From a virus (taxonomy: Duplodnaviria; Heunggongvirae; Uroviricota; Caudoviricetes): a stretch of DNA of 37,471 nucleotides. The notes under the pieces are model-generated. The model was not told the DNA's origin. It saw nothing but the letters and a program-made list of their open reading frames with translations, and made no database searches. This document shows positions 11,706 through 34,307 of this stretch, piece after piece; within the stretch, counting starts at the first letter, position 1, and the number at the start of each line of letters is the position of its first letter. Where the stretch lies: the IMG/VR virus record IMGVR_UViG_2563366824_000004. One strand, 5' to 3'. Made by a program: the position numbers and the translations under genes.

Positions 11706-13471
11706 CAAAAAATCTCCACAATATTGCTGGTATTGGCGGATTCGCCCTGCAGCGGTTCGTTAAACAGTGCGTGCATCGTTGCCCAGGCCAGATCGGCGTG
11801 GCTGGCTTCTTCGCTGCGGCTGGCTTCATAGGTCGGGCGGTTGCCACTGGCGGTGGTGGCGCGACGGATTGCCATAAAGGACTGCGCTATGTCGGTGTGT
11901 CCGGCGTCAAACTCCAGACGGCGGTGGCTGATAATGTCGTAGGCCTTGAGTACCAGGGCGTTTTTAACGTTGGGGTTGTAGACAAACTCCCGGACGGCAG
12001 GAAAAAACGCTTTCACGTTCTCGTAAACCCCGTGACCAACGCCGGTTGAGTCGATACCGATATAGGTCACGTTGTACTGTTCGGTCAGTTTTTTGATGGC
12101 GTCAGCCTGGGCGCGGAAGTCCATTCCGCGCCACTGGTGACGCTCAAGAATGCGGAACTTACCGCCCGGCACGGCTGGCGGCGCCACCACCACGCATCCG
12201 GCGCTGTCGCCGTTCTGCGTACCTTTCGCCGGGTCATATCCGATCCACACTTCGCGCCAGCCAAACGGGCGCAGGGCCAGTGCATGAAAGTCGGTCCAGA
12301 CTTCCCAACTGTCCACCATGCACGCCTGCAGCTCGCTGAGTGGGAACACAGACGCGAGATCGTCCACGAACTCACACATCAGCAGGTTCTGGTATTCGTC
12401 CGGGCTGTACTCCATGCGCAACTGGTCGAGGTCGAACAGGTTACAGCCGCCGCGCACCGCATCTTCCACAGTGACTATCTGGCGGTACTGCCCGTCTGCG
12501 CACAGCAGGCCGGGGGCCAGATTGCTGTGGGACAGGTCGATGTCCACCTTATCGGCTTTGTTGCGCCCTCGGTTGAACAGCGCACCGGACCAGAACGGAT
12601 AAGCACTGTGTGTCAGGCTGGATGGCGTGGAAAAATAGGTTTGTCGCCATTTTTTGTGAATAGCCATACCGGAAGCCACTTTGCGCAGCTCCTGGAATTT
12701 CGGTATCCAGAAATATTCATCCAGATACAGGTTGCCGTGGTAACTCTGGGCCGTGCGGGCATTGGTGCCGAGGAAGTACAGCGTGGCCCCGTTAGGAAGC
12801 ACCATCGGATCGCCTTTCAGCTCCACCTCCACTTCTTTGGCGAAGTCGATGATGTACTGCTTAAAGACGTGGGCCTGAGCCTTGCTGGCGGAAAGGAAAA
12901 TCTGGTTACGCCCGGTTAGCAGGGCGTCAATCAGGGCTTCACGGGCAAAATAGAAGGTCGCGCCGATCTGGCGTGACTTCAGCAGGTTGCGGATGCGGTT
13001 GGTTTTTCCGGCTTCCCACCAGTGGCGCTGGTAGTTGAACATGGAGGAATGGAAGATTTCTTCCAACTTCTCAATCTGTTCATCGGTGAAAACGTTCTTT
13101 TCCGGCTGACGGCGCGGGCCTTTGTTGCGGTTGGCGACGTTAGGGTTTAAGTCGGCTTCGTTGCCGCCATTGTTAAACTTGCCGATCCGCGCATGGCGCT
13201 CCGACTGGCGCGCCAGCAGGTCAATCTCTTTGAAATCTTTCCCTTCTTTGTGCTCCTTCATAATGAGCTGGCAGTAGCGTGCGGCGGTGGTGAGCTGCAT
13301 CTGATCCAGCGGCCCATAGTCACCCCACTTGTCGCGTTTTTTCCAGCTGTGAACGGTTGCAACTTTCTCGCCCAGCATTTCAGCAATGCGGGCTACGCGG
13401 TATCCCTGAAAGTACAGCAGCATGGCCTGCCGACGGGGATCGAGATCTGCGGGTGTCAGTGTGGTGTTCAT
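11705..13471 (-). CDS. P: Terminase large (ATPase) subunit gpP
   Basis: 588 aa, leftward, divergent from the O-N-M-L operon, as for P2 gpP. Confidence 0.85.
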   Translation of the reverse strand: MNTTLTPADLDPRRQAMLLYFQGYRVARIAEMLGEKVATVHSWKKRDKWGDYGPLDQMQLTTAARYCQLIMKEHKEGKDFKEIDLLARQSERHARIGKFNNGGNEADLNPNVANRNKGPRRQPEKNVFTDEQIEKLEEIFHSSMFNYQRHWWEAGKTNRIRNLLKSRQIGATFYFAREALIDALLTGRNQIFLSASKAQAHVFKQYIIDFAKEVEVELKGDPMVLPNGATLYFLGTNARTAQSYHGNLYLDEYFWIPKFQELRKVASGMAIHKKWRQTYFSTPSSLTHSAYPFWSGALFNRGRNKADKVDIDLSHSNLAPGLLCADGQYRQIVTVEDAVRGGCNLFDLDQLRMEYSPDEYQNLLMCEFVDDLASVFPLSELQACMVDSWEVWTDFHALALRPFGWREVWIGYDPAKGTQNGDSAGCVVVAPPAVPGGKFRILERHQWRGMDFRAQADAIKKLTEQYNVTYIGIDSTGVGHGVYENVKAFFPAVREFVYNPNVKNALVLKAYDIISHRRLEFDAGHTDIAQSFMAIRRATTASGNRPTYEASRSEEASHADLAWATMHALFNEPLQGESANTSNIVEIF

Positions 13472-19458: not shown

Positions 19459-21327
19459 TTAATTTTCAATGCTTTGCTTTAATTTATCTATTGCGGGAGT
19501 TAAACAATCATTTATGAGCTCATCGATTTGTAATGATAATATATTTGAGTTTATTTGAGTTTTCTTTTCAATTAGCTTTCTAATTAGCTCGCGGTGGAAA
19601 AAACGCTCTGCAGAAAGCTCTTTTAGATAAGGGGTGTTGTTGTATCGGTTTTTTATAGCATAGCCAAAGAAATGCATCTCGGTTGAGTCTATCAGTATTT
19701 TTGTTAGTTGTTCAGCATCACCAAAATAAAGAACTGGTTTGTCGTGAAATGAATAAATATCTTTGTTGTTGAAATTTAGATGTGCGTAATATTCATGATT
19801 TCCGGACTGTATTAATTTGAATATCTTTTGAGCGTCTTGGCTAAGTTGATATGCAATTAATACATTTTTCTTTTGTTCTATGTAATTAACAAGCTCCTTG
19901 AATTCCCTAGTTTCTTTGCAATGAAAAGTTAATCCTCTCCATCGCTCATCCTTAATGTCTTCATCAAAAATTTCATAACTAGTTTGTATCATTCCTTTTT
20001 CTGCTAAAATATCAACAGCAGAGTGGGCTAAGTTTGTTAAATAGTGTTCGTTGATGGGTTTTATATGTTCTCTGGATAAATGAAGTAATAATCCGTAAAT
20101 ATGCTTAAGAACATGCTCGTTCAATATTTCAAAATTAATAAGCGTATGAAGTGTTGAATTGTAATTTTCCTCAAATTCTGTGTATTTTAATCGATCATAA
20201 TTCCAAAGTTGTGTCCATGGCTCAATTGTTTTATTAGAAACACTGACGAATGTTATTAATTCAGATATTATTTTTTCTTGATTGATTTTCTGATTGTCAA
20301 TTATATCGATCCAGGTATCCTCGTCTAAGATTAAATTTGACAAATAAGTTGTACCATATTTTTCAATTAAATTGGATGTGTATTTATTATCATCATCTAT
20401 TTTATATGTTAACAAGTCAGAAACGGTTCGTTTTATTTTATTAGATTCAAAATAGAGTATAAAATGTAATTGATATAATCTGAGTGTCAAATCTGAATTT
20501 TGCTGAAACTGTGCTGGTAATATTTTGAATATTCTTTCAAAAAAAGAAATTTGCCTTTCAATTAATCTAATGTTATTACACTCTGAAAGAGTGAGTAAGC
20601 TCTCAATATTTTTTATGTTCAGAATGGTGTTGAGTTCGCTAGTTATATTTTTTAGAAAATATTCGTAGGCGTGAGAATGTTGAGGTTGATATTTGAAAGT
20701 TATACCTATAACTTTTTCTTTTGCATCTAAATAAATACCATCATGATTTTTATTTCTAGCGGGGTTTAATATTTCTCTCTCATTGGCGATAATCAAAACC
20801 TTGCATTCTTTTTCTTCAACGAAATTATTTATATAACCAAATATAGAATTCCAATCTAATTCGCAGCGTTCAAGATCATCAAATATCAATATGGTGTTTT
20901 CTGGTGAGTAGTAAAAGTCTTTAATGCTTACGTTGGGTAGTTCTGGGGAGCCCTCTACACTTGTAACGAATGAATCACTTAAATCAATCTTAAGTGTGCC
21001 TTTAATTAGTGCCTTAGTTAGTGTGCCAGCAAGCAACATGCCTTTAGATGAAAGGAAGGGATGCATTTGCTTGAAAATTATTTCGTCAATTTGTTCGGTG
21101 GATTTTATTCCATATAATGAGATCATTAATGGCTTAACTTTCCCTTTTAGTGATTCTTCATTCATTAATTTACGGACAAACCATGTTTTCCCGCTTCCCC
21201 ATTCGCCGTCAATCATTACTGCGAAATTAGGGGATTTTTCAAGATCCACTAAATAATTAAGATATGAGGTTAGCTCTTCATTGTAATTCATTGGATTGTA
21301 AGACCCTTCATACAATTTGAAAATCAC
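19459..21327 (-). CDS. KAP-family P-loop NTPase (622 aa), cargo gene between S and V
   Basis: Hallmark KAP Walker A DGEWGSGKTWF and Walker B ILIFDDLERC; strongly AT-rich; opposite strand to the flanking late genes. Start may be the ATG at 21291 rather than the GTG at 21327. Confidence 0.75.
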   Translation of the reverse strand: MIFKLYEGSYNPMNYNEELTSYLNYLVDLEKSPNFAVMIDGEWGSGKTWFVRKLMNEESLKGKVKPLMISLYGIKSTEQIDEIIFKQMHPFLSSKGMLLAGTLTKALIKGTLKIDLSDSFVTSVEGSPELPNVSIKDFYYSPENTILIFDDLERCELDWNSIFGYINNFVEEKECKVLIIANEREILNPARNKNHDGIYLDAKEKVIGITFKYQPQHSHAYEYFLKNITSELNTILNIKNIESLLTLSECNNIRLIERQISFFERIFKILPAQFQQNSDLTLRLYQLHFILYFESNKIKRTVSDLLTYKIDDDNKYTSNLIEKYGTTYLSNLILDEDTWIDIIDNQKINQEKIISELITFVSVSNKTIEPWTQLWNYDRLKYTEFEENYNSTLHTLINFEILNEHVLKHIYGLLLHLSREHIKPINEHYLTNLAHSAVDILAEKGMIQTSYEIFDEDIKDERWRGLTFHCKETREFKELVNYIEQKKNVLIAYQLSQDAQKIFKLIQSGNHEYYAHLNFNNKDIYSFHDKPVLYFGDAEQLTKILIDSTEMHFFGYAIKNRYNNTPYLKELSAERFFHRELIRKLIEKKTQINSNILSLQIDELINDCLTPAIDKLKQSIEN

Positions 21328-21344: not shown

Positions 21345-21938
21345 ATGCAAACTGCAACCATGAACGCACAACTCACAGAAATTATGCGCCTTATCACCAA
21401 TCTGATCCGCACCGGCATTGTGACCGAAGTGGACCGGAACAAATGGCTGTGCCGGGTGAAGGTAGGCGAGCTTGAAACCAACTGGATTAACTGGCTGACG
21501 CTACGCGCCGGTGGTGCCCGTACATGGTGGTGCCCGTCGCCAGATGAGCAGGTGGTGGTGCTGAGCATGGGCGGCAATCTGGAAACCGCGTTTGCGCTGC
21601 CCGCCATCTATTCGAATCAGTTCGCACCACCGTCGACGTCGGCGGACGCCTGCGTGACAGAACATCCTGACGGTGGCTGGTTTGAATACGAACCCGCCAC
21701 CGGGCGCTGGTATGTCAGGGGCATCAAATCAATGGTCATTGAGGCTGCTGACAACATCACCATGAAAACCAGTGAGTTTGTACTGGAGGCTGACCGCACG
21801 CGCATTAACAGCGAAGTGGTGATCAATGGTGGCGTTACCCAGGGCGGCGGAGCGATGAGTTCTAACGGGATCGTGGTTGATGCGCATCAGCATACTGGCG
21901 TCCTGAAAGGCGGCGATACAACCGGAGGCCCGGTATGA
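21345..21938 (+). CDS. V: Baseplate spike/assembly protein gpV
   Basis: IRTGIVTEVD...WINWLTLRAGG...WWCPS...GVLKGGDTTGGP resembles P2 gpV as recalled. Start may be the internal ATG at 21360. Confidence 0.85.
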   Translation: MQTATMNAQLTEIMRLITNLIRTGIVTEVDRNKWLCRVKVGELETNWINWLTLRAGGARTWWCPSPDEQVVVLSMGGNLETAFALPAIYSNQFAPPSTSADACVTEHPDGGWFEYEPATGRWYVRGIKSMVIEAADNITMKTSEFVLEADRTRINSEVVINGGVTQGGGAMSSNGIVVDAHQHTGVLKGGDTTGGPV

Positions 21939-22294
21939 CGCTTTATAGCGGGATGAACAATACCAGCGGCAAAGTCATTACTGATATTGATCATCTGCGC
22001 CAGTCGGTGCGGGACATTCTGCTGACACCGCAGGGTAGCCGTATTGCCCGCCGGGAATATGGTTCCCTGCTGTCGGCACTGATAGATCAGCCACAAAATC
22101 CGGCATTACGCCTGCAGGTCATGTCGGCAGTGTATGTGGCGCTGAGTCGCTGGGAGCCACGGTTGACGCTGGATTCCATCACCATCAACAGCAATTTTGA
22201 CGGTTCAATGGTGGTGGAGCTGACCGGGCGGCGGAATAACGGTGTGCCTGTGTCCCTTTCCGTATCAACAGGAGCAGAGAATGGCAGTGATTGA
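21935..22294 (+). CDS. W: Baseplate protein gpW (gp25-like)
   Basis: 119 aa, coupled to V; the motif ILLTPQGSRIARREYGSLL is typical of the GPW/gp25 family. Confidence 0.85.
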   Translation: MTLYSGMNNTSGKVITDIDHLRQSVRDILLTPQGSRIARREYGSLLSALIDQPQNPALRLQVMSAVYVALSRWEPRLTLDSITINSNFDGSMVVELTGRRNNGVPVSLSVSTGAENGSD

Positions 22295-23189
22295 CCTTTC
22301 GCAGTTGCCTGCACCGCAGATTGTGGATGTGCCGGACTTTGAGGCGCTGCTTGCCGAACGCAAGGCAGAATTTGTGGCGCTTCATCCGAAAGATGAGCAG
22401 GAAGCAGTGATCCGCACGCTGGAACTGGAATCTGAACCCGCCACTAAATTGTTGCAGGAGAACGCTTACCGTGAGTTGCTTCTGCGCCAGCGCATTAACG
22501 AAGCCGCGCAGGCGGTGATGGTGGCTTACGCGATGGGCGGCGATCTTGACCAGCTCGCTGCCAACTACAACGTGACACGCCTGACGGTGACGCCTGCTGA
22601 TAATGATGCTGTGCCGCCCGTTGCAGCTGTGATGGAAAGCGATGAAGCGTTGCGCCTGCGTGTGCCTGCAGCCTTTGAAGGGCTTTCTGTTGCGGGGCCA
22701 ACTGCAGCTTATGAATTTCATGCCCGAAGCGCCGACGGTCGGGTGGCGGATGCCAGTGCAACCAGCCCGGCACCTGCAGAGGTGGTGCTGACTGTCCTTA
22801 GCCGCGAAGGCGATGGAACTGCAGAAAAAGACCTGCTGGACGTGGTGGAAAAAGCTCTGAACAGTGAGAACGTCCGCCCGGTGGCTGACCGTCTTACGGT
22901 TCGCAGCGCAGAAATCATCCCGTATCGCGTGGAAGCCACCATTTTTCTCTATCCTGGACCGGAAGCAGAGCCGGTAATGGCAGCGGCAAAAGCCAGCCTG
23001 CAGAAGTACATCGCCAGTCAGACGCGTCTTGGTCGGGATATTCGCCGTAGCGCCATCTTTGCCGCCCTGCATGTTGAGGGGGTGCAGCGTGTGGAGCTGG
23101 CTTCTCCTCTGGCGGATGTGGTCCTGAACAAAACACAGGCGGCATCATGTACGCAGTGGAGCGTAACCAACGGAGGAACGGATGAATAG
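22281..23189 (+). CDS. J: Baseplate protein gpJ
   Basis: ATG at 22281 with AGGAG upstream gives 302 aa, matching the P2 gpJ length; position after W. Confidence 0.85.
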   Translation: MAVIDLSQLPAPQIVDVPDFEALLAERKAEFVALHPKDEQEAVIRTLELESEPATKLLQENAYRELLLRQRINEAAQAVMVAYAMGGDLDQLAANYNVTRLTVTPADNDAVPPVAAVMESDEALRLRVPAAFEGLSVAGPTAAYEFHARSADGRVADASATSPAPAEVVLTVLSREGDGTAEKDLLDVVEKALNSENVRPVADRLTVRSAEIIPYRVEATIFLYPGPEAEPVMAAAKASLQKYIASQTRLGRDIRRSAIFAALHVEGVQRVELASPLADVVLNKTQAASCTQWSVTNGGTDE

Positions 23190-23787
23190 TCTGCTGCCAC
23201 CGGGTTCAACACCACTGGAGCGCCGACTGGCGCAAACCTGCAGCGGGATTTCTGATCTGCAGGTGCCGCTTCGTGACTTGTGGAATCCGGCAACCTGTCC
23301 GGTCAGTTTCCTGCCTTATCTCGCCTGGGCGTTCTCTGTGGATCGCTGGGACGAGGGCTGGACAGAAAGCGTCAAGCGCCAGGTGGTGAAGGATGCTTTT
23401 TATATTCATCAGCATAAAGGGACCACCAGTGCCGTGCGGCGGGTGGTGGAGCCGTTCGGATTCCTGATCCGCATTATTGAGTGGTGGCAGACCGGAGAAA
23501 CACCGGGCACGTTTCGCCTGGATATCGGCGTGCAGGACCAGGGCATCACTGAAGATACCTATCTGGAACTTGAGCGACTGATAAGCGATGCCAAACCATG
23601 TAGCCGCCACATGATCGGCATGTCCATCAATCTGCAGACCAGCGGCCCGCATTGGGTGGGAGCCGCCAGCTATCTTGGCGAAGAAATCACGATCTATCCG
23701 TATATCAACGAAACGATTATTTCCGGTGGCACCGCGCATGAAGGCGGGGCGGTCCATGTTATTGACACAATGAGAGTGAATCCATGA
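23182..23787 (+). CDS. I: Baseplate protein gpI
   Basis: Position between J and the tail fibre gene; GGAGG RBS. Confidence 0.8.
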   Translation: MNSLLPPGSTPLERRLAQTCSGISDLQVPLRDLWNPATCPVSFLPYLAWAFSVDRWDEGWTESVKRQVVKDAFYIHQHKGTTSAVRRVVEPFGFLIRIIEWWQTGETPGTFRLDIGVQDQGITEDTYLELERLISDAKPCSRHMIGMSINLQTSGPHWVGAASYLGEEITIYPYINETIISGGTAHEGGAVHVIDTMRVNP

Positions 23788-25223
23788 GCACAAAATTTTA
23801 TACCCTGCTGACGGATATTGGCGCGGCGAAACTTGCCAGCGCCGCCGCGCTCGGTGTGCCGCTAAAAATTACCCATATGGCGGTGGGCGATGGCGGTGGA
23901 GTATTGCCAACGCCGGACGCAAAGCAGACGGCACTGGTAAATGAGAAACGCCGGGCTGCGCTGAATATGCTTTATATCGACCCGCAGAACAGCAGCCAGA
24001 TTATTGCCGAACAGGTGATCCCTGAAAACGAGGGCGGTTGGTGGATACGTGAAGTGGGCTTGTTTGATGAGTCCGGGGCGTTGATTGCCGTGGGCAACTG
24101 CCCGGAAAGCTATAAGCCGCAACTGGCTGAAGGTAGCGGGCGCACTCAGACCGTGCGCATGGTGCTGATTACCAGCAGCACGGACAATATCACCCTGAAA
24201 ATCGACCCTGCTGTAGTGCTGGCAACCCGCAAGTATGTGGATGACAAGGCACTGGAGCTGAAGGTGTACGCGGATGATCAGATGGCAAAACATCTTGCCG
24301 CACCGGACCCGCATTCACAGTACGCGCCAAAAGCCAGCCCGACATTTACCGGAACCCCCAAAGCGCCAACGCCAGCGGCGGGAAATAATACCACGCAGGT
24401 TGCGACCACTGCGTTTGTACAGGCGGCACTGACGGCCCTTATTAATGGTGCGCCAGCCACGCTGGACACGCTGAAAGAAATAGCCGCAGCCATTAACAAT
24501 GATCCGAATTTCAGTACCACCATTAACAATGCGCTGGCACTAAAAGCACCGTTGTCGAGTCCGGCACTCACCGGAACGCCAACAGCCCCCACGGCGGCGC
24601 AGTCGGTCAACAATACACAGATTGCCACTACGGCTTTTGTGAAATCGGCGATTGCAGGAATGGTGGGTTCTGCACCTGCTGCACTGGATACACTGAACGA
24701 ACTGGCGGCGGCACTGGGGAATGATCCGAACTTTGCCACGACAATGCTTAATGCGCTGGCAGGTAAACAACCGCTGGACAATACGCTTACCAATTTGAGT
24801 GGAAAGGATGTAGCTGGTCTTCTCACATACCTTGGTTTGGGAGAAGCGGCAACGAGGAACGTCGGAACGGATACCGGGCAAGTACCAGATATGAGTAGTT
24901 TTACAACGGGGCACTCTGGAGCAGCAGACTGGCCGATTCCTAAATCTGGATGGAGTAAGGGGCCGGAAGGGGTAATTACACAATGGGGTATTTTCGGTTT
25001 CCCCGTTGGACAGACAGGGACGAATGTTGTTTTCCCGCTACCTTTCCCCGCGCGGGTCGAATCAATTACACTGACAATGGCAGATATCCAGGAGTCTCTG
25101 CTTTCTCCAACAACCATGCCTGCTTATGGAGTTAACTCAACTGGTACTTCAAGAACGGGTTTTACAGCCCGTATGTCAGGCGCCGGTGGGTTTAATCTTT
25201 GCTATATAGCGAAAGGGAGATAA
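23784..25223 (+). CDS. H: Tail fibre protein gpH, with a switchable C-terminal segment
   Basis: 479 aa; Ala/Thr/Asn-rich with internal tandem repeats; followed by a tail fibre assembly gene; contains a crossover site at 24830-24855. Confidence 0.85.
   Translation: MSTKFYTLLTDIGAAKLASAAALGVPLKITHMAVGDGGGVLPTPDAKQTALVNEKRRAALNMLYIDPQNSSQIIAEQVIPENEGGWWIREVGLFDESGALIAVGNCPESYKPQLAEGSGRTQTVRMVLITSSTDNITLKIDPAVVLATRKYVDDKALELKVYADDQMAKHLAAPDPHSQYAPKASPTFTGTPKAPTPAAGNNTTQVATTAFVQAALTALINGAPATLDTLKEIAAAINNDPNFSTTINNALALKAPLSSPALTGTPTAPTAAQSVNNTQIATTAFVKSAIAGMVGSAPAALDTLNELAAALGNDPNFATTMLNALAGKQPLDNTLTNLSGKDVAGLLTYLGLGEAATRNVGTDTGQVPDMSSFTTGHSGAADWPIPKSGWSKGPEGVITQWGIFGFPVGQTGTNVVFPLPFPARVESITLTMADIQESLLSPTTMPAYGVNSTGTSRTGFTARMSGAGGFNLCYIAKGR
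24333..24776 (+). repeat. Two tandem in-frame repeat units of about 222 bp (74 aa) inside the tail fibre gene
   Basis: ASPTFTGTPKAPTPAAGNNTTQVATTAFVQAALTALINGAPATLDTLKEIAAAINNDPNFSTTINNALALKAPL versus SSPALTGTPTAPTAAQSVNNTQIATTAFVKSAIAGMVGSAPAALDTLNELAAALGNDPNFATTMLNALAGKQPL. Confidence 0.7.
24830..24855. promoter_or_regulatory. Left 26-bp invertase crossover site (cix/gix/hix-like) inside the tail fibre gene
   Basis: TTCTCACATACCTTGGTTTGGGAGAA is an inverted copy (14 identical nt, TTGGTTTGGGAGAA) of the site at 26680-26705; resembles hixL TTCTTGAAAACCAAGGTTTTTGATAA as recalled. Confidence 0.55.
24830..25223 (+). other. Currently expressed variable tail fibre C-terminus (inside the invertible segment)
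   Basis: Portion of H downstream of the left crossover site. Confidence 0.5.
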
Positions 25224-25227
25224 CAGA

Positions 25228-25671
25228 ATGAATAAAGTTAAAAGTGTTTACAGCCCGTCCGAAAATGCAATCTACAACGCAGCGCTATATGAAAGTTATA
25301 TCAAGGAGGGGACATGGCCGCAGGATGGTATTGAAATCAGCGATGAGGATGCTGTCAGATTTAATGGGGGAAATAAGCCAACAGGAAAAATGCTGGGAAT
25401 GGTTTCAGGGACCCTTGCATGGGTTGATGAGCCGCCGCTTTCACCAGAACAGAAAATATCAGATGCAGAAAACATGAAAGCCACATTTCGTGCAAAAGCT
25501 GACAGTGAAATATCCTGGCGTCAGGATGCTGTTGATGCTGGTATCGCAACTGATGAAGAAACTTCAACTCTCACCCAATGGAAGAAATACCGTGTGCTGC
25601 TGATGCGTGTTGATACATCAACAGCCCCCGATATTGAATGGCCTACACCTCCGGCAGTTCAGGCCAGATGA
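25228..25671 (+). CDS. G: Tail fibre assembly protein gpG (147 aa)
   Basis: C-terminal motif TSTAPDIEWP typical of tail fibre assembly chaperones; directly after H. Confidence 0.8.
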   Translation: MNKVKSVYSPSENAIYNAALYESYIKEGTWPQDGIEISDEDAVRFNGGNKPTGKMLGMVSGTLAWVDEPPLSPEQKISDAENMKATFRAKADSEISWRQDAVDAGIATDEETSTLTQWKKYRVLLMRVDTSTAPDIEWPTPPAVQAR

Positions 25672-26236
25672 CATCCGGCGCGGTGCTGGTATCTGTTGCC
25701 GTCACCGCGTCAATGTAATCCAGCACGGCGTTAAGGCGGGTGGTTTCTGCCTGCGTCAGCCTCCGCCCGGCCTGTAATTTCAGCTGAATCAGACTGATGG
25801 AAGCCATTGCAGCATCAATCAGTGACTGGCGCTGTGCTTCTGCCGCGTCTACTGCGGCACCGTGTTGTGCCTCAGTATCTGTCACCCATTTCTCACCATC
25901 CCATTTATCATATGGCGTTAACGGTGAAAGCGTGACATAACCGTTTTTGATGGCACCGATATAATCCACTGTAACAGCAGCACCATTTTCGATTGAGTAA
26001 ACAGTCTCATTGCGATGGTCTTCTTCATGGCTCCATCCCTTACCTGTAAATACTGCCACTCTTCCCGGAATGTTTTCGCCAGGGTCAATACCAGTGGAAC
26101 AGGCGGGCATACTTACGCCAGTATTAATATATTCATCAGACCAGCCCGTATACTCAGATGTTTCAGCATCATAATAAAAACAACGCATATCGCCCGGCAC
26201 TGTAGCCAGCCCATTTTTATCAAAAACAGGTTTCAT
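25643..26236 (-). CDS. Alternative tail fibre assembly protein (197 aa), opposite orientation
   Basis: C-terminus ATDTSTAPDVIWPELP parallels gpG; converges on and overlaps G by 29 bp, as U/U' do in Mu-type invertible segments. Confidence 0.75.
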   Translation of the reverse strand: MKPVFDKNGLATVPGDMRCFYYDAETSEYTGWSDEYINTGVSMPACSTGIDPGENIPGRVAVFTGKGWSHEEDHRNETVYSIENGAAVTVDYIGAIKNGYVTLSPLTPYDKWDGEKWVTDTEAQHGAAVDAAEAQRQSLIDAAMASISLIQLKLQAGRRLTQAETTRLNAVLDYIDAVTATDTSTAPDVIWPELPEV

Positions 26237-26733
26237 TATTTAGCCCTCACCAGAAAGTTAAATGCAATATTGCGCGGTCTGACAGCAACAAAATTCACAC
26301 CATCACCCACAGAGTTACTGGTGAAATTAAATCGTGAAAATCCTGGCTGATTTCCGGCGATGCCATCATGAAAGTTAATTGCGTGTCCCGCACCTTCGCC
26401 TATATTCCCGGCAAACTGAGAAAAGTTTGTAGCTGCCTGCCAGCTTAATAATTCGCGACCACCGTCTGCACCTCGTCCGTCATCCCAGATACGAATGAAA
26501 TCACCGCGGGCTTCAGGTAATACCAGCGAAGGAAATACTTTCGCCAGCACAGGATAATCAGTGGCAGAGAATTTCGCGCCGTTGAACTTCAAAAACACCA
26601 TACTGGACCAGCTGTCGATTACAGTATTTGGCATTGCAGCGGACGGCCAGAAGAACGGAACGCCAATAGCTGGAGCACCTTCTCCCAAACCAACGTTTAA
26701 GAAAATGCAGAGGTAACAGCTAACTGGCATCAT
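26236..26733 (-). CDS. Alternative tail fibre C-terminal variable segment, silent in this orientation
   Basis: Reading frame continues through the right crossover site (encodes NVGLGEG, parallel to H YLGLGEA at the left site); on inversion it would fuse to the constant part of H. The ATG at 26733 is probably fortuitous. Confidence 0.65.
   Translation of the reverse strand: MMPVSCYLCIFLNVGLGEGAPAIGVPFFWPSAAMPNTVIDSWSSMVFLKFNGAKFSATDYPVLAKVFPSLVLPEARGDFIRIWDDGRGADGGRELLSWQAATNFSQFAGNIGEGAGHAINFHDGIAGNQPGFSRFNFTSNSVGDGVNFVAVRPRNIAFNFLVRAK
26680..26705. promoter_or_regulatory. Right 26-bp invertase crossover site
   Basis: TTCTCCCAAACCAACGTTTAAGAAAA; inverted relative to the site at 24830-24855; imperfect internal dyad around a central AA dinucleotide. 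Confidence 0.55.
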
Positions 26734-26760
26734 CTCCGGTTTTTATTCAGGGGGATGATC

Positions 26761-27327
26761 ATGCTTATTGGCTATGTACGCGTGTCAACAAATGACCAGA
26801 ACACCGATTTGCAACGAAATGCACTGAACTGCGCGGGATGTGAGCGGATTTTTGAGGACAAAATCAGTGGCACTAAGTCCGACAGACCGGGGCTGAAAAA
26901 ACTGCTCAGGACACTATCGGCAGGAGACACGCTGGTTGTCTGGAAGCTGGACAGGTTGGGGCGCAGTATGCGGCATCTTGTTACGCTGATAGAAGAGTTG
27001 CGCCAGCGTGGTGTGAATTTCAGAAGCCTGACTGACAGTATTGATACCAGTACCCCAATGGGCCGTTTCTTTTTTCATGTCATGGGTGCCCTGGCTGAAA
27101 TGGAACGCGAACTGATAGTTGAACGTACCAGGGCAGGGCTGGCTGCAGCTCGTGCCAAAGGCAGAGTAGGTGGACGCCGTCCTAAGTTGACCACCGAACA
27201 GTGGGCACAGATCGGGCGTTTACTCGAGGCCGGAGAATCAATACAGCGTATTGCACTGATTTTTGATGTAGGCGTTTCTACCATTTATAGAAAATTTCCG
27301 GCAAATAAGATCAATGAATCCCCCTGA
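26761..27327 (+). CDS. Serine DNA invertase (Cin/Gin/Hin/Pin family)
   Basis: MLIGYVRVSTNDQNTDLQRNAL...GDTLVVWKLDRLGRSMRHL...RTRAGLAAARAKGRVGGRRPKL plus a C-terminal HTH; catalytic Ser in the YVRVST context. The ORF-track start at 26755 is an alternative. Confidence 0.9.
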   Translation: MLIGYVRVSTNDQNTDLQRNALNCAGCERIFEDKISGTKSDRPGLKKLLRTLSAGDTLVVWKLDRLGRSMRHLVTLIEELRQRGVNFRSLTDSIDTSTPMGRFFFHVMGALAEMERELIVERTRAGLAAARAKGRVGGRRPKLTTEQWAQIGRLLEAGESIQRIALIFDVGVSTIYRKFPANKINESP

Positions 27328-27375
27328 ATCAGCATTATGTTGATTATCCCTGCAAGCAGACAAATACCGTTATTT

Positions 27376-27393
27376 TGTGTGAATAACGACACA
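27376..27393. promoter_or_regulatory. Candidate Ogr-dependent late promoter element (TGT-N12-ACA) for the FI operon
   Basis: TGTGTGAATAACGACACA centred about 85 bp upstream of the FI start codon, consistent with the -55 dyad geometry of P2 late promoters. Confidence 0.45.
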
Positions 27394-27469
27394 ACTGCGC
27401 TTAGCTGTTTGTCAGGCACAATCACTTCAACATAGGGCGAAGCCTAATCCAATCAGGAGGTTCGCCACT

Positions 27470-28642
27470 ATGGCTCAGGATTACCACCACGGGGTGCGCG
27501 TTGTTGAAGTCAACGAAGGCACCCGATCTATTACCACGGTGAGCACCGCCATCGTGGGTATGGTCTGCACGGGCGATGATGCCGATGCAAAAATGTTTCC
27601 TCTTAATAAACCCGTGCTGATCACTGATGTGCTGACTGCCAGCGGTAAAGCGGGTGAGTCAGGTACTCTGGCCCGTTCGCTGGATGCCATCGCTGACCAG
27701 GCAAAACCCGTGACCATTGTTGTGCGTGTGCCGCAGGGTGAAACGGAAGACGAAACCACGACCAATATCATCGGCGCAGTGACTGCTGAAGGTAAAAAAA
27801 CAGGTATGAAAGCCCTGTTATCTGCCCAGTCACAGCTCGGCGTTAAACCGCGCATTCTCGGCGTGCCAGGCCACGACACCAAGGCGGTAGCTACTGAGTT
27901 GCTGAGCGTGGCGCAAAGCCTGCGTGGATTTGCTTACCTGTCAGCGTATGGCTGCAAGACAGTGCAGGAGGCGATCACTTACCGCGAAAACTTCAGCCAG
28001 CGCGAAGGGATGCTGATCTGGCCTGACTTTACTGGCTGGGACACGGTGCTGAATGCCGAAGCAACGGCATATGCCACCGCCCGTGCACTTGGTCTGCGCG
28101 CCAAAATTGACGAGCAGACCGGATGGCACAAAAGCCTTTCCAACGTGGGCGTGAACGGTGTCACCGGAATTTCTGCAGATGTGTTCTGGGATCTGCAGGA
28201 CCCGGCAACCGATGCAGGTCTGCTGAACCAGAACGACGTCACCACGCTTGTGCGTAAAGACGGTTTCCGCTTCTGGGGTTCCCGCTGCCTGAGTGATGAC
28301 CCGCTCTTTGCCTTCGAAAACTACACCCGCACGGCGCAGGTGCTGATGGACACGATGGCAGAAGCACACATGTGGGCGGTGGATAAACCGCTTAACCCGT
28401 CGCTGGCCCGCGACATTATCGAAGGTATCCGCGCCAAAATGCGCAGCCTGGTCAGTCAGGGCTATCTCATTGGTGGTGATTGCTGGCTGGATGAGTCGGT
28501 GAACGACAAAGACACGCTGAAAGCCGGAAAACTCACCATCGACTACGACTACACGCCAGTGCCGCCACTTGAAAACCTGATGCTGCGTCAGCGCATCACC
28601 GATCAGTACCTGGTGAATTTCGCCAGCCAGGTCAGCGCGTAA
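27470..28642 (+). CDS. FI: Tail sheath protein gpFI
   Basis: 390 aa, AGGAGG RBS, followed by the tube gene; P2 FI position and size. Confidence 0.9.
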
Positions 28643-28651
28643 GGGGACAAC

Positions 28652-29167
28652 ATGGCTTTACCACGCAAATTAAAACACCTGAACCTGTTTAACGACGGGA
28701 ACAACTGGCAGGGGATCGTTGAGTCGCTGACGCTGCCGAAATTTACCCGCAAATATGAGAAGTATCGCGGCGGCGGAATGCCGGGTGCGGTGGATGTGGA
28801 TCTGGGGCTTGATGACAGTGCGCTGGACACAGAATTTTCCATTGGTGGTACTGAATTGCTGCTGTTTAAACAGATGGGTAAAGCCACGGTGGATGGCATC
28901 CAGCTGCGCTTTACCGGCTCTATTCAGCGTGACGATACCGGGGAAGTGCAGGCCGTGGAGCTTGTCGTGCGTGGACGTCACAAAGAAGTGGATTCCGGCG
29001 AGTGGAAGACGGGCGAAAGCAACACCACCAAAGTGACCAGTACCAACAGCTACGCGAAGCTGACCATCAATGGTGAGGTGCTCTATGAAGTGGACCTTAT
29101 CAACATGGTGGAAATTGTGGACGGTGTGGACCTGATGGAAGCGCACCGCAACGCCCTCGGCCTCTGA
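28652..29167 (+). CDS. FII: Tail tube protein gpFII
   Basis: 171 aa directly after the sheath gene. Confidence 0.9.
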   Translation: MALPRKLKHLNLFNDGNNWQGIVESLTLPKFTRKYEKYRGGGMPGAVDVDLGLDDSALDTEFSIGGTELLLFKQMGKATVDGIQLRFTGSIQRDDTGEVQAVELVVRGRHKEVDSGEWKTGESNTTKVTSTNSYAKLTINGEVLYEVDLINMVEIVDGVDLMEAHRNALGL

Positions 29168-29221
29168 TATATCTGAACGGCGCGGGATACCGCGCCAGAA
29201 CCCAATTGACAGGACAGCAAA

Positions 29222-29524
29222 ATGAGCGATAAGCAGACTGAAAAGACCATTCAACTGGATACCCCCATCAAGCGCGGTAAAACAGAAATCACCGAAATTG
29301 TGCTGCGTAAACCGCAGTCCGGTGCGCTGCGCGGTACACGCCTGCAGGCCATTATGGATATGGATGTAAACGCGATGATGACCGTGATCCCCCGCATCTC
29401 CAGTCCGGCACTGACTGCACAGGAAATTGCAGAGATGGACCCGGCAGATCTCACAGCCATGTCGGTTGAGGTTGTCACTTTTTTGTTGAAGAAGTCGGTG
29501 CTTGCCGGTTTACCGACAGCCTGA
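29222..29524 (+). CDS. E: Tail assembly chaperone gpE (zero-frame product); the E+E' frameshift product would extend to 29658
   Basis: Small ORF upstream of the tape measure gene containing a TTTTTTG slippery heptamer; the -1 frame stays open to a TGA at 29656-29658, overlapping the T start. Confidence 0.8.
   Translation: MSDKQTEKTIQLDTPIKRGKTEITEIVLRKPQSGALRGTRLQAIMDMDVNAMMTVIPRISSPALTAQEIAEMDPADLTAMSVEVVTFLLKKSVLAGLPTA
29479..29485 (+). promoter_or_regulatory. Programmed -1 ribosomal frameshift slippery site T_TTT_TTG (E/E')
   Basis: Heptamer in the gpE zero frame (ACT TTT TTG); the -1 frame from here is open for 58 codons. Confidence 0.6.
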
Positions 29525-29650
29525 CGGTTGACGATCTGGTGGCAGATATCGCCACCATTTTTCACTGGCCGCCATCCGTTACTGACGTTATGCCGCTGAC
29601 CGAAGTGCTGGAATGGCGGTATAAAGCGATTCAGAGAAGCGGGGCCAACG

Positions 29651-32600
29651 ATGAGTGATAACAACCTGCGTCTGCAGGTCATTCTTAATGCGGTTGACAA
29701 GCTCACCCGTCCATTTCGATCTGCGCAGGCCAGTTCAAGAGAACTGGCTGCTGCTGTCAAAAAATCCCGCGATGCAATAAAGCAGCTTGATCAGGCCGGG
29801 AGCAGTCTGGACAGCTTCCGAAAGCTGCAGGCAGAAAATCAGAAATTAGGCGACAGGCTGAACTATGCCCGCCAGCGTGCAAATTTGCTCAGTCAGGAAC
29901 TGGGAGCGATGGGGCCGCCTTCGCAACGTCAGGTTGTTGCTCTGGGCCGTCAACGGCTGGCTGTTCAGCGCCTGGAAGAACGCCAGAAAAAGCTGCAGCA
30001 GCAGACGGCGCTTGTGCGTGCTGAACTGTACCGGGCGGGAATTTCTGCGAAAGACGATGCGGGAGCAACTGCCCGTTTAGCCCGTGAAACATCACGTTAT
30101 AACCAGGAACTTTCGAAACAGGAGGCGCGGCTGAAGCGACTGGGGGAAGCTCAGCGCAGGATGAATGCAGCGCGTGCCAGTTATGCCCGTTCGCTGGAGG
30201 TGCGTGATCGTATTGCAGGTGCCGGAGCCACCACCACGGCTGCAGGGCTGGCAATGGGTGCGCCAGTGATGGCGGCAGTAAAAAGCTATACCAGCATGGA
30301 AGATGCCATGAAAGGTGTGGCAAAGCAGGTCAATGGTCTGCGTGACGATAATGGCAACCGCACTGCACGTTTTTATGAAATGCAGGATGCCATCAAGGCT
30401 GCCAGCGAACAGTTGCCGATGGAAAACGGTGCGGTGGACTTCGCTGCACTGGTTGAAGGTGGTGCGCGCATGAACGTCGCAAACCCTGACGACAGCTGGG
30501 AAGATCAGAAACGTGACCTGCTGGCCTTCGCCAGTACGGCAGCAAAGGCGGCAACAGCCTTTGAGCTGCCAGCGGATGAACTGTCAGAAAGTCTGGGGAA
30601 AATCGCCCAGCTCTACAAAATCCCCACCCGCAATATTGAACAGCTCGGTGATGCGCTGAACTATCTGGATGATAACGCCATGTCGAAAGGGGCAGACATC
30701 ATTGATGTGATGCAACGTCTGGGCGGTGTGGCTGACCGTCTGGATTATCGTAAAGCGGCGGCGCTGGGTTCCACCTTCCTGACACTGGGCGCTGCGCCAG
30801 AGGTTGCAGCCAGTGCAGCAAACGCGATGGTGCGTGAATTGTCCATTGCCACCATGCAAAGCAAGAGTTTCTTTGAAGGGATGAATCTGCTGAAACTCAA
30901 TCCTGAAGTGGTTGAAAAGCAGATGACGAAGGATGCGATGGGAACCATCCAGCGCGTGCTGGAGAAGGTAAACGCGCTGCCGCAGGACAAGCGCCTGTCT
31001 GCCATGACTATGTTGTTTGGTAAAGAGTTTGGCGATGACGCGGCGAAACTGGCAAACAACCTGCCGGAACTGCAGCGTCAGTTAAAACTGACAGCGGGCA
31101 ATGATGCGCTCGGCTCCATGCAGAAAGAATCCGACATTAACAAGGATTCACTTTCTGCGCAGTGGTTGCTGGTCAAAACCGGAGCGCAGAACACCTTCAG
31201 CAGCCTGGGCGAAACGCTGCGCCAGCCGCTGATGGATATTCTGTACACGGTGAAAAGCGTCACGGGGGCGTTGCGTCGCTGGGTGGAAGCTAACCCGGAA
31301 CTGACAGGCACACTGATGAAAGCATCGGCTGTTGTGGCTGCGGTTACCGTCGGCCTCGGCACCTTAGCGGTGGCGCTGGCTGCAGTGCTGGGGCCGCTGG
31401 CAGTGATCCGTCTGGGATTCTCTGTGTTGGGTATCAAAACGTTATCTTCCGTTACGGCAGCAGTAACTCGAACCAGCAGCGCGTTATCCTGGCTGGCTGG
31501 CGCACCACTGGCACTGCTGCGACGCGGGCTTGCTTCATCGGGCAACGCCGCAGGTTTACTTACTGCGCCGTTGTCGTCTTTGCGCCGCACGGCATCACTG
31601 ACGGGAAATGTCCTGAAAACTGTAGCAGGTGCGCCGGTTGCACTTTTGCGGTCTGGATTATCCGGTTTACGTGCTGTTGCTGTGATGTTTATGAATCCTC
31701 TGGCGGTACTGCGCGGTGGACTGGCCGCCGCAGGCACGGTGCTGCGAGTACTGGCATCTGGTCCACTGGCGATGCTGCGCGTTGCCCTGTATGCCATATC
31801 TGGTCTGTTAGGTGCTCTGCTCAGTCCGATAGGTCTTGTGGTTACTGCACTGGCGGGCGTGGCGCTGGTTGTCTGGAAATACTGGCAACCCATCACCGCA
31901 TTTCTCGGTGGCGTGGTGGAAGGATTCAAAGCGGCGGCTGGTCCCGTCAGTGCAGCATTCGAACCACTTAAGCCTGTATTTCAGTGGATTGGCGATAAAG
32001 TACAGGCGCTGTGGGGCTGGTTTACTGATCTGCTGACGCCCGTTAAGTCGACCTCTGCCGAACTGCAGAGCGCAGCGGCAATGGGGCGACGATTCGGGGA
32101 GGCACTGGCGGAAGGGCTGAATATGGTTATGCATCCGCTGGACTCCCTGAAATCCGGTGTTTCCTGGTTACTGGAGAAACTTGGCATTGTCAGTAAAGAG
32201 GCCGCAAAGGCAAAACTGCCGGAAAGCGTGACGCGTCAGCAACCTGTGACGGTGAATGCAGACGGTAAAGTGATGATGTCATCGGGTGGTTTTCCATCAT
32301 GGGGATATGGCTTTGCGGGGATGTATGACCGCGGCGGCTATATCCCGCGCGGGCAGTTTGGCATTGTCGGTGAAAACGGGCCTGAAATTGTCAATGGCCC
32401 GGCAAACGTGACCAGCCGGAGAAATACCGCTGCACTGGCTGCGGTTGTCGCCGGAATGATGGGCGTTGCTGCCGCGCCAGCAGAGTTTCCACCGTTGCAT
32501 CCTTTGGCGCTTCCCGCGAAAGGCGGTGAAGCGATGGTGAGTCGCGCAGTCACTGTGCCGCCCGTTTACCAGATTGAGGCACCAACGCAGATCATCATCC

Positions 32601-32728
32601 AGACGCAGCCAGGACAAAGTGCGCAGGATATTGCACGGGAGGTGGCCCGCCAGCTTGATGAACGTGAACGCAGGCTGAAGGCAAAAGCCAGGAGTAACTA
32701 CAGCGATCAGGGGGGATACGACGCATGA
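29651..32728 (+). CDS. T: Tail tape measure protein gpT
   Basis: 1025 aa, Ala/Leu-rich with repetitive helical segments; after E/E'. Confidence 0.9.
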   Translation: MSDNNLRLQVILNAVDKLTRPFRSAQASSRELAAAVKKSRDAIKQLDQAGSSLDSFRKLQAENQKLGDRLNYARQRANLLSQELGAMGPPSQRQVVALGRQRLAVQRLEERQKKLQQQTALVRAELYRAGISAKDDAGATARLARETSRYNQELSKQEARLKRLGEAQRRMNAARASYARSLEVRDRIAGAGATTTAAGLAMGAPVMAAVKSYTSMEDAMKGVAKQVNGLRDDNGNRTARFYEMQDAIKAASEQLPMENGAVDFAALVEGGARMNVANPDDSWEDQKRDLLAFASTAAKAATAFELPADELSESLGKIAQLYKIPTRNIEQLGDALNYLDDNAMSKGADIIDVMQRLGGVADRLDYRKAAALGSTFLTLGAAPEVAASAANAMVRELSIATMQSKSFFEGMNLLKLNPEVVEKQMTKDAMGTIQRVLEKVNALPQDKRLSAMTMLFGKEFGDDAAKLANNLPELQRQLKLTAGNDALGSMQKESDINKDSLSAQWLLVKTGAQNTFSSLGETLRQPLMDILYTVKSVTGALRRWVEANPELTGTLMKASAVVAAVTVGLGTLAVALAAVLGPLAVIRLGFSVLGIKTLSSVTAAVTRTSSALSWLAGAPLALLRRGLASSGNAAGLLTAPLSSLRRTASLTGNVLKTVAGAPVALLRSGLSGLRAVAVMFMNPLAVLRGGLAAAGTVLRVLASGPLAMLRVALYAISGLLGALLSPIGLVVTALAGVALVVWKYWQPITAFLGGVVEGFKAAAGPVSAAFEPLKPVFQWIGDKVQALWGWFTDLLTPVKSTSAELQSAAAMGRRFGEALAEGLNMVMHPLDSLKSGVSWLLEKLGIVSKEAAKAKLPESVTRQQPVTVNADGKVMMSSGGFPSWGYGFAGMYDRGGYIPRGQFGIVGENGPEIVNGPANVTSRRNTAALAAVVAGMMGVAAAPAEFPPLHPLALPAKGGEAMVSRAVTVPPVYQIEAPTQIIIQTQPGQSAQDIAREVARQLDERERRLKAKARSNYSDQGGYDA

Positions 32729-33210
32729 TGATGGTGCTGGGATTGTACGTGTTTATGCTGCGCACCGTGCCGTATCAGGAACTGCAGTATCAGCGCAGCT
32801 GGCGACATGCGGCTAACAGTCGGGTAAATCGTCGTCCATCCACGCAGTTTCTGGGACCGGACAACGACATGCTGACGCTTTCTGGTGTTCTTATGCCGGA
32901 GATAACAGGCGGCAGGTTGTCATTGCTGGCACTGGAGCAGATGGCAGAACAGGGGAAAGCATGGCCCCTGATTGAAGGCAGCGGCACGATTTACGGCATG
33001 TATGTGATTGAGGGACTGAATCAGACCAAAACGGAGTTTTTCCGCGACGGTATGCCGCGCCGGATTGAGTTCACCCTGTCGCTCAAACGGGTGGATGAAT
33101 CCCTGTCCGATATGTTTGGTGATCTCAGTGCGCAGCTGAATAATCTGCAGGACATGGCAACATCTGCCTTAAGCGATATCAGTAAAACGGTGGGAGGGCT
33201 GCTGTCATGA
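32725..33210 (+). CDS. U: Tail protein gpU
   Basis: 161 aa, coupled to T; P2 order T-U-D. Confidence 0.85.
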   Translation: MMMVLGLYVFMLRTVPYQELQYQRSWRHAANSRVNRRPSTQFLGPDNDMLTLSGVLMPEITGGRLSLLALEQMAEQGKAWPLIEGSGTIYGMYVIEGLNQTKTEFFRDGMPRRIEFTLSLKRVDESLSDMFGDLSAQLNNLQDMATSALSDISKTVGGLLS

Positions 33211-34307
33211 ATTTCAGCTCTGAACTGCTTAACAAAGGCAACAAAACTCCGGCATTCAGTATCAGTATTGAGGGCAGGGATATCACCACTGTGCTGGATA
33301 ACCGTCTGATGAGTCTGACGCTGGCGGACAATCGGGGCTTTGAAGCGGACCAGCTTGATCTGGAGCTGGACGACGCCGACGGAAAAATCGTGCTGCCGCG
33401 CCGTGGTGCGGTCATTACGCTGGCGCTGGGCTGGAAGGGGCTGCCGCTTTTCCCGAAAGGGGCATTCACGGTGGACGAGATTGAACACACTGGCGCACCG
33501 GACCGCCTGACTATCCGGGCGCGAAGTGCTGATTTTCGTGAAACGCTGAATACCCGCCGTGAAAAATCGTGGCATAACACCACCATCGGGGAAGTGGTGA
33601 AGGAAATAGCCGCGCGGCACAAGCTGAAGATGGCACTGGGTAAAGACCTGTCGGATAAGCCCGTGGAGCATATAGACCAGACTAATGAGAGTGACGGCAG
33701 TTTTCTGATGCGGCTGGCGCGACAGTACGGTGCTATTGCGTCGGTGAAAAATGGCAATCTGTTATTCATCCGGCAGGGACAGGGTAAAAGCGCCAGCGGT
33801 AAACCACTACCGGTGATCACTATCACACGTAAGGACGGCGACAGTCACCGCTTTACCCTGGCGGATCGCGGAGCTTACACGGGTGTAATAGCCAGCTGGT
33901 TGCATACCCGCGAACCCGCGAAGAAAAAAAGCACCACGGTGAAGCGTAAGCGCAGGACTAAGAAGCAGAAGAAAGAGCCGGAAGCGAAGCAGGGCGATTA
34001 CCTGGTGGGGACGGATGAAAACGTGCTGGTACTTAATCGCACCTATGCTAATCGGAGTAACGCCGAACGGGCAGCGAAAATGCAGTGGGAACGCCTGCAA
34101 CGCGGTGTTGCGTCATTCTCGCTACAACTGGCGGAAGGTCGGGCGGATCTCTACACGGAAATGCCTGTGAAGGTCAGCGGCTTTAAACAGCCGATAGATG
34201 ATGCGGAATGGACCATTACCACCCTGACACATACCGTCAGCCCGGATAACGGTTTTACGACCAGTCTGGAGCTTGAAGTGAGGATTGATGATTTCGAAAT
34301 GGAATGA
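33207..34307 (+). CDS. D: Tail protein gpD (late control gene D)
   Basis: 366 aa, last gene of the tail operon before ogr. Confidence 0.85.
   Translation: MNFSSELLNKGNKTPAFSISIEGRDITTVLDNRLMSLTLADNRGFEADQLDLELDDADGKIVLPRRGAVITLALGWKGLPLFPKGAFTVDEIEHTGAPDRLTIRARSADFRETLNTRREKSWHNTTIGEVVKEIAARHKLKMALGKDLSDKPVEHIDQTNESDGSFLMRLARQYGAIASVKNGNLLFIRQGQGKSASGKPLPVITITRKDGDSHRFTLADRGAYTGVIASWLHTREPAKKKSTTVKRKRRTKKQKKEPEAKQGDYLVGTDENVLVLNRTYANRSNAERAAKMQWERLQRGVASFSLQLAEGRADLYTEMPVKVSGFKQPIDDAEWTITTLTHTVSPDNGFTTSLELEVRIDDFEME

Follow-up and report, generated by a model that had tools for sequence, protein, structure and literature searches.

A probable two-state inversion switch of the Gin/Cin/Pin type in the tail-fibre operon of an Escherichia coli P2-type prophage

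Introduction

Among the described site-specific inversion systems, the one closest to the locus analysed here is the P segment of e14, a cryptic prophage of Escherichia coli K-12, with its invertase PinE; the G segment of phage Mu with Gin, the C segment of phage P1 with Cin, and the H segment of Salmonella with Hin are further systems of this kind. Here we examine the tail-fibre region of a 37,471-nucleotide viral sequence (IMG/VR record IMGVR_UViG_2563366824_000004; the whole stretch is hereafter called the window), which by its map of open reading frames (ORFs) and its Pfam matches corresponds essentially to a single, complete P2-type E. coli prophage. We assign a probability of roughly 0.86 to the reading that its tail-fibre operon holds a two-state site-specific inversion switch of the Gin/Cin/Pin type.

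The likeness to e14 extends from the enzyme (84.8% identity to PinE) to nearly identical crossover sites with TT/AA cores, and to the order of the genes, in which the fibre gene is followed by tfa, a convergent tfa', a silent fibre end and, outside the segment, the invertase gene. The P segment measures 1797 bp (PMC12529663), as compared to 1858 bp from core to core here, and the second half-cassette of the window encodes a 197-amino-acid (aa) chaperone with 64% identity to TfaE and a fibre tip, Sv', with 40% identity to StfE. Unlike in e14, a defective remnant of lambdoid type, the switch of the window is placed in a complete P2-type tail operon and on a constant part of the gpH type, and the first half-cassette, with its Gp53-like_C tip, is unrelated to that of K-12 e14.

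With Mu and P1 the window shares the enzyme family (72.9% identity to Gin and 76.9% to Cin), the architecture of the 26-bp sites, common to Mu gix and P1 cix, and a constant S part followed by alternative Sv/U and Sv'/U' cassettes. The enhancer of the two phages lies in the 5' end of the invertase gene, where the window has a candidate recognized by homology. The G and C segments are however larger, approximately 3 kb and 4.2 kb, the gix core of Mu reads GA/TC where the window has AA/TT, the variable parts, except for the chaperone C-termini, bear no relation to those of the window, and the host phages are of the Mu and P1 types, not of the P2 type. Hin of Salmonella belongs to the same enzyme subfamily and employs 26-bp hix sites with AA/TT cores as well as a Fis-dependent enhancer (PMC3798978). 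The hin gene is nevertheless located inside its own segment, inversion of which flips a promoter, whereas the invertase gene of the window lies outside and the flip swaps coding 3' ends.

Switches of this kind have also been found in P2-like prophages. The Fin invertase of Salmonella Fels-2, said to have been reported by Kutsukake et al. in 2006 (as cited in PMC4272514), is a further P2-like example that we liken to the window by description. In the enteropathogenic E. coli (EPEC) strain E2348/69, two P2-like prophages with invertible fibre loci were detected by sequencing and polymerase chain reaction, both orientations coexisting in clonal cultures (Goldberg et al., PMC4272514). As described, these loci resemble the window in having an invertase and inverted repeats in the fibre region, one of them with three repeats and four variants, as opposed to two sites and two states here. 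Moreover, the Z/fun hotspot of P2-like phages often encodes a DNA invertase, with adjacent genes inverted (bioRxiv 10.1101/2024.10.15.618418), and E. coli and Klebsiella records contain numerous P2-type phages and prophages in which an invertase is annotated at this position. The unusualness implied by an initial annotation, which had been made from the DNA alone, is consequently lost, all the more as such inversion has already been published (PMC4272514). The switch is an ordinary representative of a system that has been known for a long time, in a setting where it has already been described, and the value of the present analysis rather lies in correct annotation: the prophage can probably present two receptor-binding tips, of importance for host-range prediction and for P2-type phages or tailocins as tools.

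Crossover sites and recombinase

The left crossover site, TTCTCACATACC-TT-GGTTTGGGAGAA, spans 24820-24845 (core TT at 24832-24833) inside the fibre gene, where it encodes LLTYLGLGE, and the right site, TTCTCCCAAACC-AA-CGTTTAAGAAAA, spans 26680-26705 (core AA at 26692-26693). Both consist of two imperfect 12-bp half-sites flanking a 2-bp core, and the TT and AA of the plus strand become identical once one site is inverted, as required for religation following a 180-degree rotation; two inverted 26-bp sites with identical 2-bp cores are what is expected of the invertase class. The pair constitutes the top inverted repeat of the surrounding 7 kb (24820-24846 pairing with 26679-26705; 27 nt, 81% complementary), and a scan of the 37.5 kb with the hix/gix/cix-type consensus, permitting at most three mismatches, returned exactly these two matches, with 0 in 100 shuffles. 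In a comparison with the e14 P segment, the right sites differ at 1 nt and the inner halves of the left sites do not differ at all. The outer half of the left site of the window reads CATACC, deviating from the AAACC motif.

From core to core the segment comprises 1858 bp, and 1886 bp between the outer edges. With small corrections of coordinates, this agrees with the initial annotation, which had placed a segment of about 1.9 kb between inverted 26-bp hix-like sites, one of them within the fibre gene; compared as reverse complements, 21 of the 26 positions match. No third crossover site was detected by the consensus scan of the window or by a search with the inner half-site plus core. A multiple-inversion system, as in p15B Min or the three-repeat EPEC locus, is ruled out, with only two full sites and no further half-site-plus-core match. 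The same applies to a shufflon, which employs the tyrosine recombinase Rci and multiple 19-bp sfx repeats: the adjacent enzyme is a serine recombinase and the sites are of the 26-bp hix type.

The recombinase gene is found downstream of the segment and outside of it, at 26761-27327 on the plus strand. The ORF opens at 26755, and the ATG at 26761 is preceded by GGGGG 6 nt upstream and yields the MLIGYVRVS N-terminus common to Gin, Cin and PinE. The 188-aa product combines a Pfam Resolvase domain (residues 5-137, E-value (E) 2.9e-53) with a C-terminal helix-turn-helix domain (HTH_7, E 6.4e-16), in line with small serine recombinases of about 185-195 aa, and its N-terminus, MLIGYVRVSTNDQ, has Ser9 in the YVRVST motif. 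Alignment to the sequence of the Mu Gin crystal structure (PDB 3uj3) covers residues 1-184 with E 1.4e-91, as compared to only 2.5e-34 for gamma-delta resolvase, and a resolvase reading is ruled out by this difference. Residues specific to the Fis/enhancer-dependent invertases correspond to Q151, R154 and L155 of Hin and to basic residues at 47, 48 and 51 (McLean et al., PMC3798978, from which the roles of the invertase residues compared here are taken). In the window invertase, helix 1 of the DNA-binding domain contains Q-I-G-R-L and helix B contains G-L-K-K-L-L-R, and the wild-type equivalents of Gin H106 and M114 are present as well. Among the NCBIfam models, none at equivalog level reached its cut-off for this protein. 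Judged by these comparisons, the recombinase is a Gin/Cin/Pin-type invertase and not a member of the resolvase subgroup, congruent with the Cin/Gin/Hin-type enzyme first proposed to follow the segment (73-85% identity to Gin, Cin and PinE).

Fibre cassettes and simulated inversion

The gpH-type fibre gene extends over 23784-25223 on the plus strand and encodes 479 aa, with Pfam Phage_tail_fib at the N-terminus and Gp53-like_C at the other end. Its constant part (23784-24833, plus; Phage_tail_fib E 5.7e-65, frame checked by translation) contributes residues 1-350 ahead of the core, and residues 351-354 (GLGE), encoded by the inner half-site, do not change with the orientation. The currently expressed C-terminus, Sv, is encoded at 24834-25223 (plus) and comprises 125 aa, residues 355-479 (Gp53-like_C E 4.7e-9 over residues 394-478), with 97.6% identity to the fibre tips of the prophages of RM9088 and PigCaeca_1. 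It is followed by the gene of a 147-aa chaperone at 25228-25671 (plus; Pfam Caudo_TAP, E 9.8e-33), which begins 5 nt past the fibre stop and has GGGAG upstream.

The second half of the segment is read from the minus strand. It holds the 197-aa chaperone gene of the alternative tip at 25643-26236 (Caudo_TAP, E 4.5e-27) and the silent, promoterless alternative C-terminus Sv' at 26236-26691, 147 aa after GLGE, which is open into the right site. The two chaperone genes are convergent, their 3' ends overlapping by 29 bp. A Pfam search of the 165-aa Sv' ORF gave no match, and neither did an NCBIfam search of the fibre parts and chaperones. The anatomy of the segment is exactly that of the Sv-U / U'-Sv' cassette pair of the Mu/P1/e14 type.

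When the segment is flipped in silico, the constant part joins Sv' in frame, generating a 501-aa fibre that ends in ...NFLVRAK, and the fibre stop overlaps the ATG of the 197-aa chaperone (TAATG), which is then located directly 3'. In this respect the anatomy envisaged in the initial annotation is borne out throughout: two convergent tail-fibre assembly genes together with an opposite-strand alternative C-terminus, a variable part of about 120 aa (125 aa as measured), and an inversion that would exchange the fibre C-terminus along with its chaperone.

We propose that dimers of the 188-aa invertase would bind the two inverted 26-bp sites and then pair in a synapse, for which a Fis-bound enhancer within the first ~90 bp of the invertase gene would probably serve as platform. 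Cleavage of both sites at the 2-bp TT/AA core, a 180-degree rotation of one half of the tetramer and religation would follow, leaving about 1.86 kb inverted. In the sequenced orientation the late operon would produce the 479-aa fibre, consisting of the constant residues 1-354 and the 125-aa Gp53-like_C tip, and then the 147-aa chaperone; in the other, the 501-aa fibre with its 147-aa StfE-like tip and then the 197-aa chaperone. A population of lysogens would in this manner release particles of two receptor specificities, and we infer such activity, its dependence on Fis and the consequence for host range for the copy in the window.

Inversion in related prophages

E. coli ZF31 and ZF34, isolates of the same described source and place, harbour the same P2-type prophage, and offer a comparison of the two states. 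The two copies agree at 100% in their flanks (3539 and 3714 bp), and the 2292 bp between the sites run in opposite directions with 99.9% identity. The inner half-sites have traded places and the outer ones have not, which is the signature of exchange at the core. The invertase of these prophages is 97.3% identical to that of the window, and their left outer half-site shows the same CATACC deviation. These genome sequences thereby document inversion at homologous sites in a near-identical prophage.

The cassette of the window itself is found flipped, with 98.0% identity, in a more distant P2-type prophage, PigCaeca_1, where DNA identity to the window amounts to 83% for the invertase gene and to 66-81% for the other aligned parts of the backbone. 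Furthermore, 61 complete E. coli genomes contain, without interruption, the left junction as it would read after the simulated flip, and 7 contain the junction as it stands in the window. The flipped-type fusion is an intact ORF of 501 aa in E. coli C4 and GW-AmxH19.

RefSeq annotation splits the flipped-state fibre genes of relatives into two pseudogenes termed 'incomplete, partial', although the ORFs are in reality intact, as in the loci L004 (3107-4612, 501 aa), L005 (3107-4612, 501 aa), L008 (2485-4008, 507 aa) and L009 (2257-3540, 427 aa). These pseudogene calls are an annotation artefact tied to the orientation of the segment, which should be checked before a fibre gene is called defective.

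Enhancer, promoter and terminator

In the P1 record, +19 to +90 of cin is marked as the Cin enhancer. Ungapped alignment to it located the homologous stretch of the window, 26779-26850 (+19 to +90 of the invertase gene). Identity is 57/72 to the P1 enhancer, 62/72 to pinE and 53/72 to gin; the same stretch also encodes the conserved catalytic N-terminus. It includes two candidate Fis-type 15-mers of the form G-N13-C, at 26782-26796 and 26831-26845, in positions that match the equivalent motifs of gin. Their centres are 49 bp apart as framed here, against about 48 bp for the class, and the centre of the proximal one is 96 bp from the right core, comparable to hin, where the proximal Fis site is roughly 100 bp away from the recombination site (PMC3798978). 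The alignment points to 26779-26850 as a putative enhancer.

In the gap between the right site and the invertase gene, a pattern scan (2 found as compared to 0.9 by chance) marked a short stem-loop with a T run at 26722-26741 on the plus strand. It is kept in P2-type relatives, not in Mu or RM9088, and may perhaps block read-through from the late operon into the invertase gene, although the match does not exceed what chance would give for the region.

Several observations weigh against an active switch in the window. The window is one sequence in one orientation, and inversion of this very copy is therefore only inferred. A promoter scan returned no plus-strand sigma-70-like promoter upstream of the invertase gene. 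Conservation of the enhancer stretch is confounded by the coding constraint on the catalytic N-terminus, and the extra synonymous conservation of codons 7-30 over codons 31-135 is weak, being seen in 8 of 10 pairs that are non-independent and of small numbers. Finally, among 5,426 complete E. coli genomes the exact pair of half-cassettes in a P2 backbone was absent in either orientation (best coverage 76-80%): in the orientation of the window none reached at least 80% coverage, and the best flipped match listed stood at 80%. The before-and-after comparison consequently relied on ZF31/ZF34 and PigCaeca_1.

The single orientation and the lack of a clear sigma-70 promoter would also fit a frozen relic, in which the invertase is silent or the sites are unused and only the 479-aa fibre is made, and the departure of the left outer half-site (CATACC) from the AAACC motif could be taken in the same direction. 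We consider this unlikely. The ORF of the invertase is uninterrupted and recurs with 100% identity in other prophages, among them that of avian pathogenic E. coli (APEC) IMT5155, where it is annotated as WP_000905030.1, and the prophages of ZF31 and ZF34 have inverted despite the same CATACC half-site. Nor has the silent half decayed, as Sv' and its chaperone retain 96-100% protein identity to the PigCaeca_1 copies, which are there in the expressed orientation. As to the promoter, the known gin and cin genes are likewise weakly expressed.

The proximity to e14 raises a further alternative, that switching in the lysogen mainly serves the host, a fibre-derived protein masking a surface receptor and blocking superinfecting phages, perhaps with other Pin-type invertases of the cell acting in trans. 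The sites are almost identical to those of e14, Sv' resembles e14 StfE as stated above, and the prophage carries other defence-type cargo; for the P segment itself, it has been reported that PinQ acts on it and that the resulting chimeric StfE2 blocks adsorption of T2 (PMC12529663). The fibre gene of the window however belongs to a late tail operon that is complete and apparently functional, in a prophage that is intact, and the sequence gives no sign of fibre expression in the lysogen. Without Ogr-type activation the P2 late operon is silent in the lysogen, and the same would be expected here. A mainly host-serving role thus appears highly improbable. A broader variant, in which the two-state switch doubles as a host-protective device and its sites act as portable joints by which co-resident P2- and Mu-type prophages trade whole receptor-binding cassettes, we regard as very unlikely.

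Mosaic cassettes

Positions 1-24845 are 98.8-98.9% identical to prophages, with a capsid annotated as P2 family, of several complete E. coli genomes such as APEC IMT5155 and DE17. Homology to these nearest, 98.9%-identical prophages ends within the left site (24845-24850). The IMT5155 prophage matches the window up to this point and again from 25609 on, its first half-cassette being different, and in 1008S13 the first half-cassette is common with the window and the second is not. A second joint, between the half-cassettes, falls at 25609-25924 and overlaps the conserved 3' ends of the chaperone genes, and the two halves of the segment have different nearest relatives. Joints at the crossover sites and at the chaperone 3' ends point towards tip-plus-chaperone units being exchanged as modules.

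The same 1.87-kb cassette is present, at 98.6% identity, in a prophage of RM9088 next to dusA (locus L002, 3992-5867), on a different baseplate-fibre module. Its orientation relative to the adjacent fibre and invertase genes is as in the window, its fusion partner is a short fibre protein with the annotation gp53-like domain-containing, and the adjoining invertase is 51% identical to that of the window. With homology ending at the crossover site and the cassette occurring in unrelated backbones, the sites delimit exchangeable receptor-binding modules.

Given the evident mosaicism of the segment, which has joints at the sites and the tfa 3' ends, it might be argued that recombination between prophages left behind both the inverted repeat and the fibre fragment on the reverse strand, and that the recombinase is unrelated cargo of resolvase type. 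This is extremely improbable in view of the full hix-type architecture of the sites with compatible cores, the in-frame fusion, the place of the enzyme in the invertase subgroup as judged by the Gin and gamma-delta resolvase alignments, and the clean inversion at the sites by which ZF31 and ZF34 differ. The architecture, the fusion and the ZF31/ZF34 inversion equally contradict a repeat that arose by chance.

Separately, residues 181-340 of the constant fibre part (24324-24803) show 80% protein identity to the constant part of P1 S, a likeness that we take as another sign of fibre-gene exchange between unrelated phage types.

Prophage context and cargo genes

The window begins with the integrase, its sole tyrosine recombinase (1-1209, minus), followed by a CI-type repressor (1449-2105, minus), the gpA replication protein (5083-7497) and the portal and terminase genes (10674-13471, minus). 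The baseplate genes V, W, J and I (21345-23787) lie 5' of the fibre gene, and sheath, tube, tape measure, U and D (27470-34307) 3' of the invertase gene, next to which a host transporter gene is reached. The order V-W-J-I-H-(G) ... FI-FII-E/E'-T-U-D with P2-family proteins is that of a P2-type (Peduoviridae) tail module, as had initially been assumed, with Pfam matches to Tail_P2_I, Phage_tail_fib, sheath domains, Phage_GPD, Phage_GPA, portal and terminase.

Also correct was the initial statement that classical P2 lacks an invertase: its record lists H, G, a terminator, fun(Z) on the opposite strand, the activator site of the PF late promoter and FI, and no recombinase. A dyad, TTGTG-N10-CACAA, occurs at 27375-27394, about 75 bp 5' of the sheath gene, in a place corresponding to the annotated activator binding site of PF in P2. 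This positions the invertase cassette downstream of the fibre operon and ahead of PF, in the place that fun(Z) occupies in P2.

A KAP-family P-loop NTPase of 622 aa (19459-21327, minus; Pfam KAP_NTPase), which matches the PADLOC candidate PDC-S49 with E 1e-134, is inserted at the junction of the gpS-type gene with baseplate gene V. Relatives differ at the same junction: E. coli C4 (L004, 1-600) has an FRG-domain protein there, GW-AmxH19 (L005, 1-584) a SIR2-family protein, and L001, L003 and L006 a short gap without an annotated gene. The gpS-V junction appears to be another hotspot of P2-type prophages for variable cargo or defence genes.

Two more cargo genes, 8212-8952 (minus) and 9357-10625 (plus), reside between replication gene A and the portal gene, the classical old/tin hotspot. 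One of the products is a DUF4145 protein with a weak match to PD-T7-4 (E 1.6e-5), and the other an AAA-type protein that matches the PADLOC candidate PDC-S59 (E 4.8e-72).

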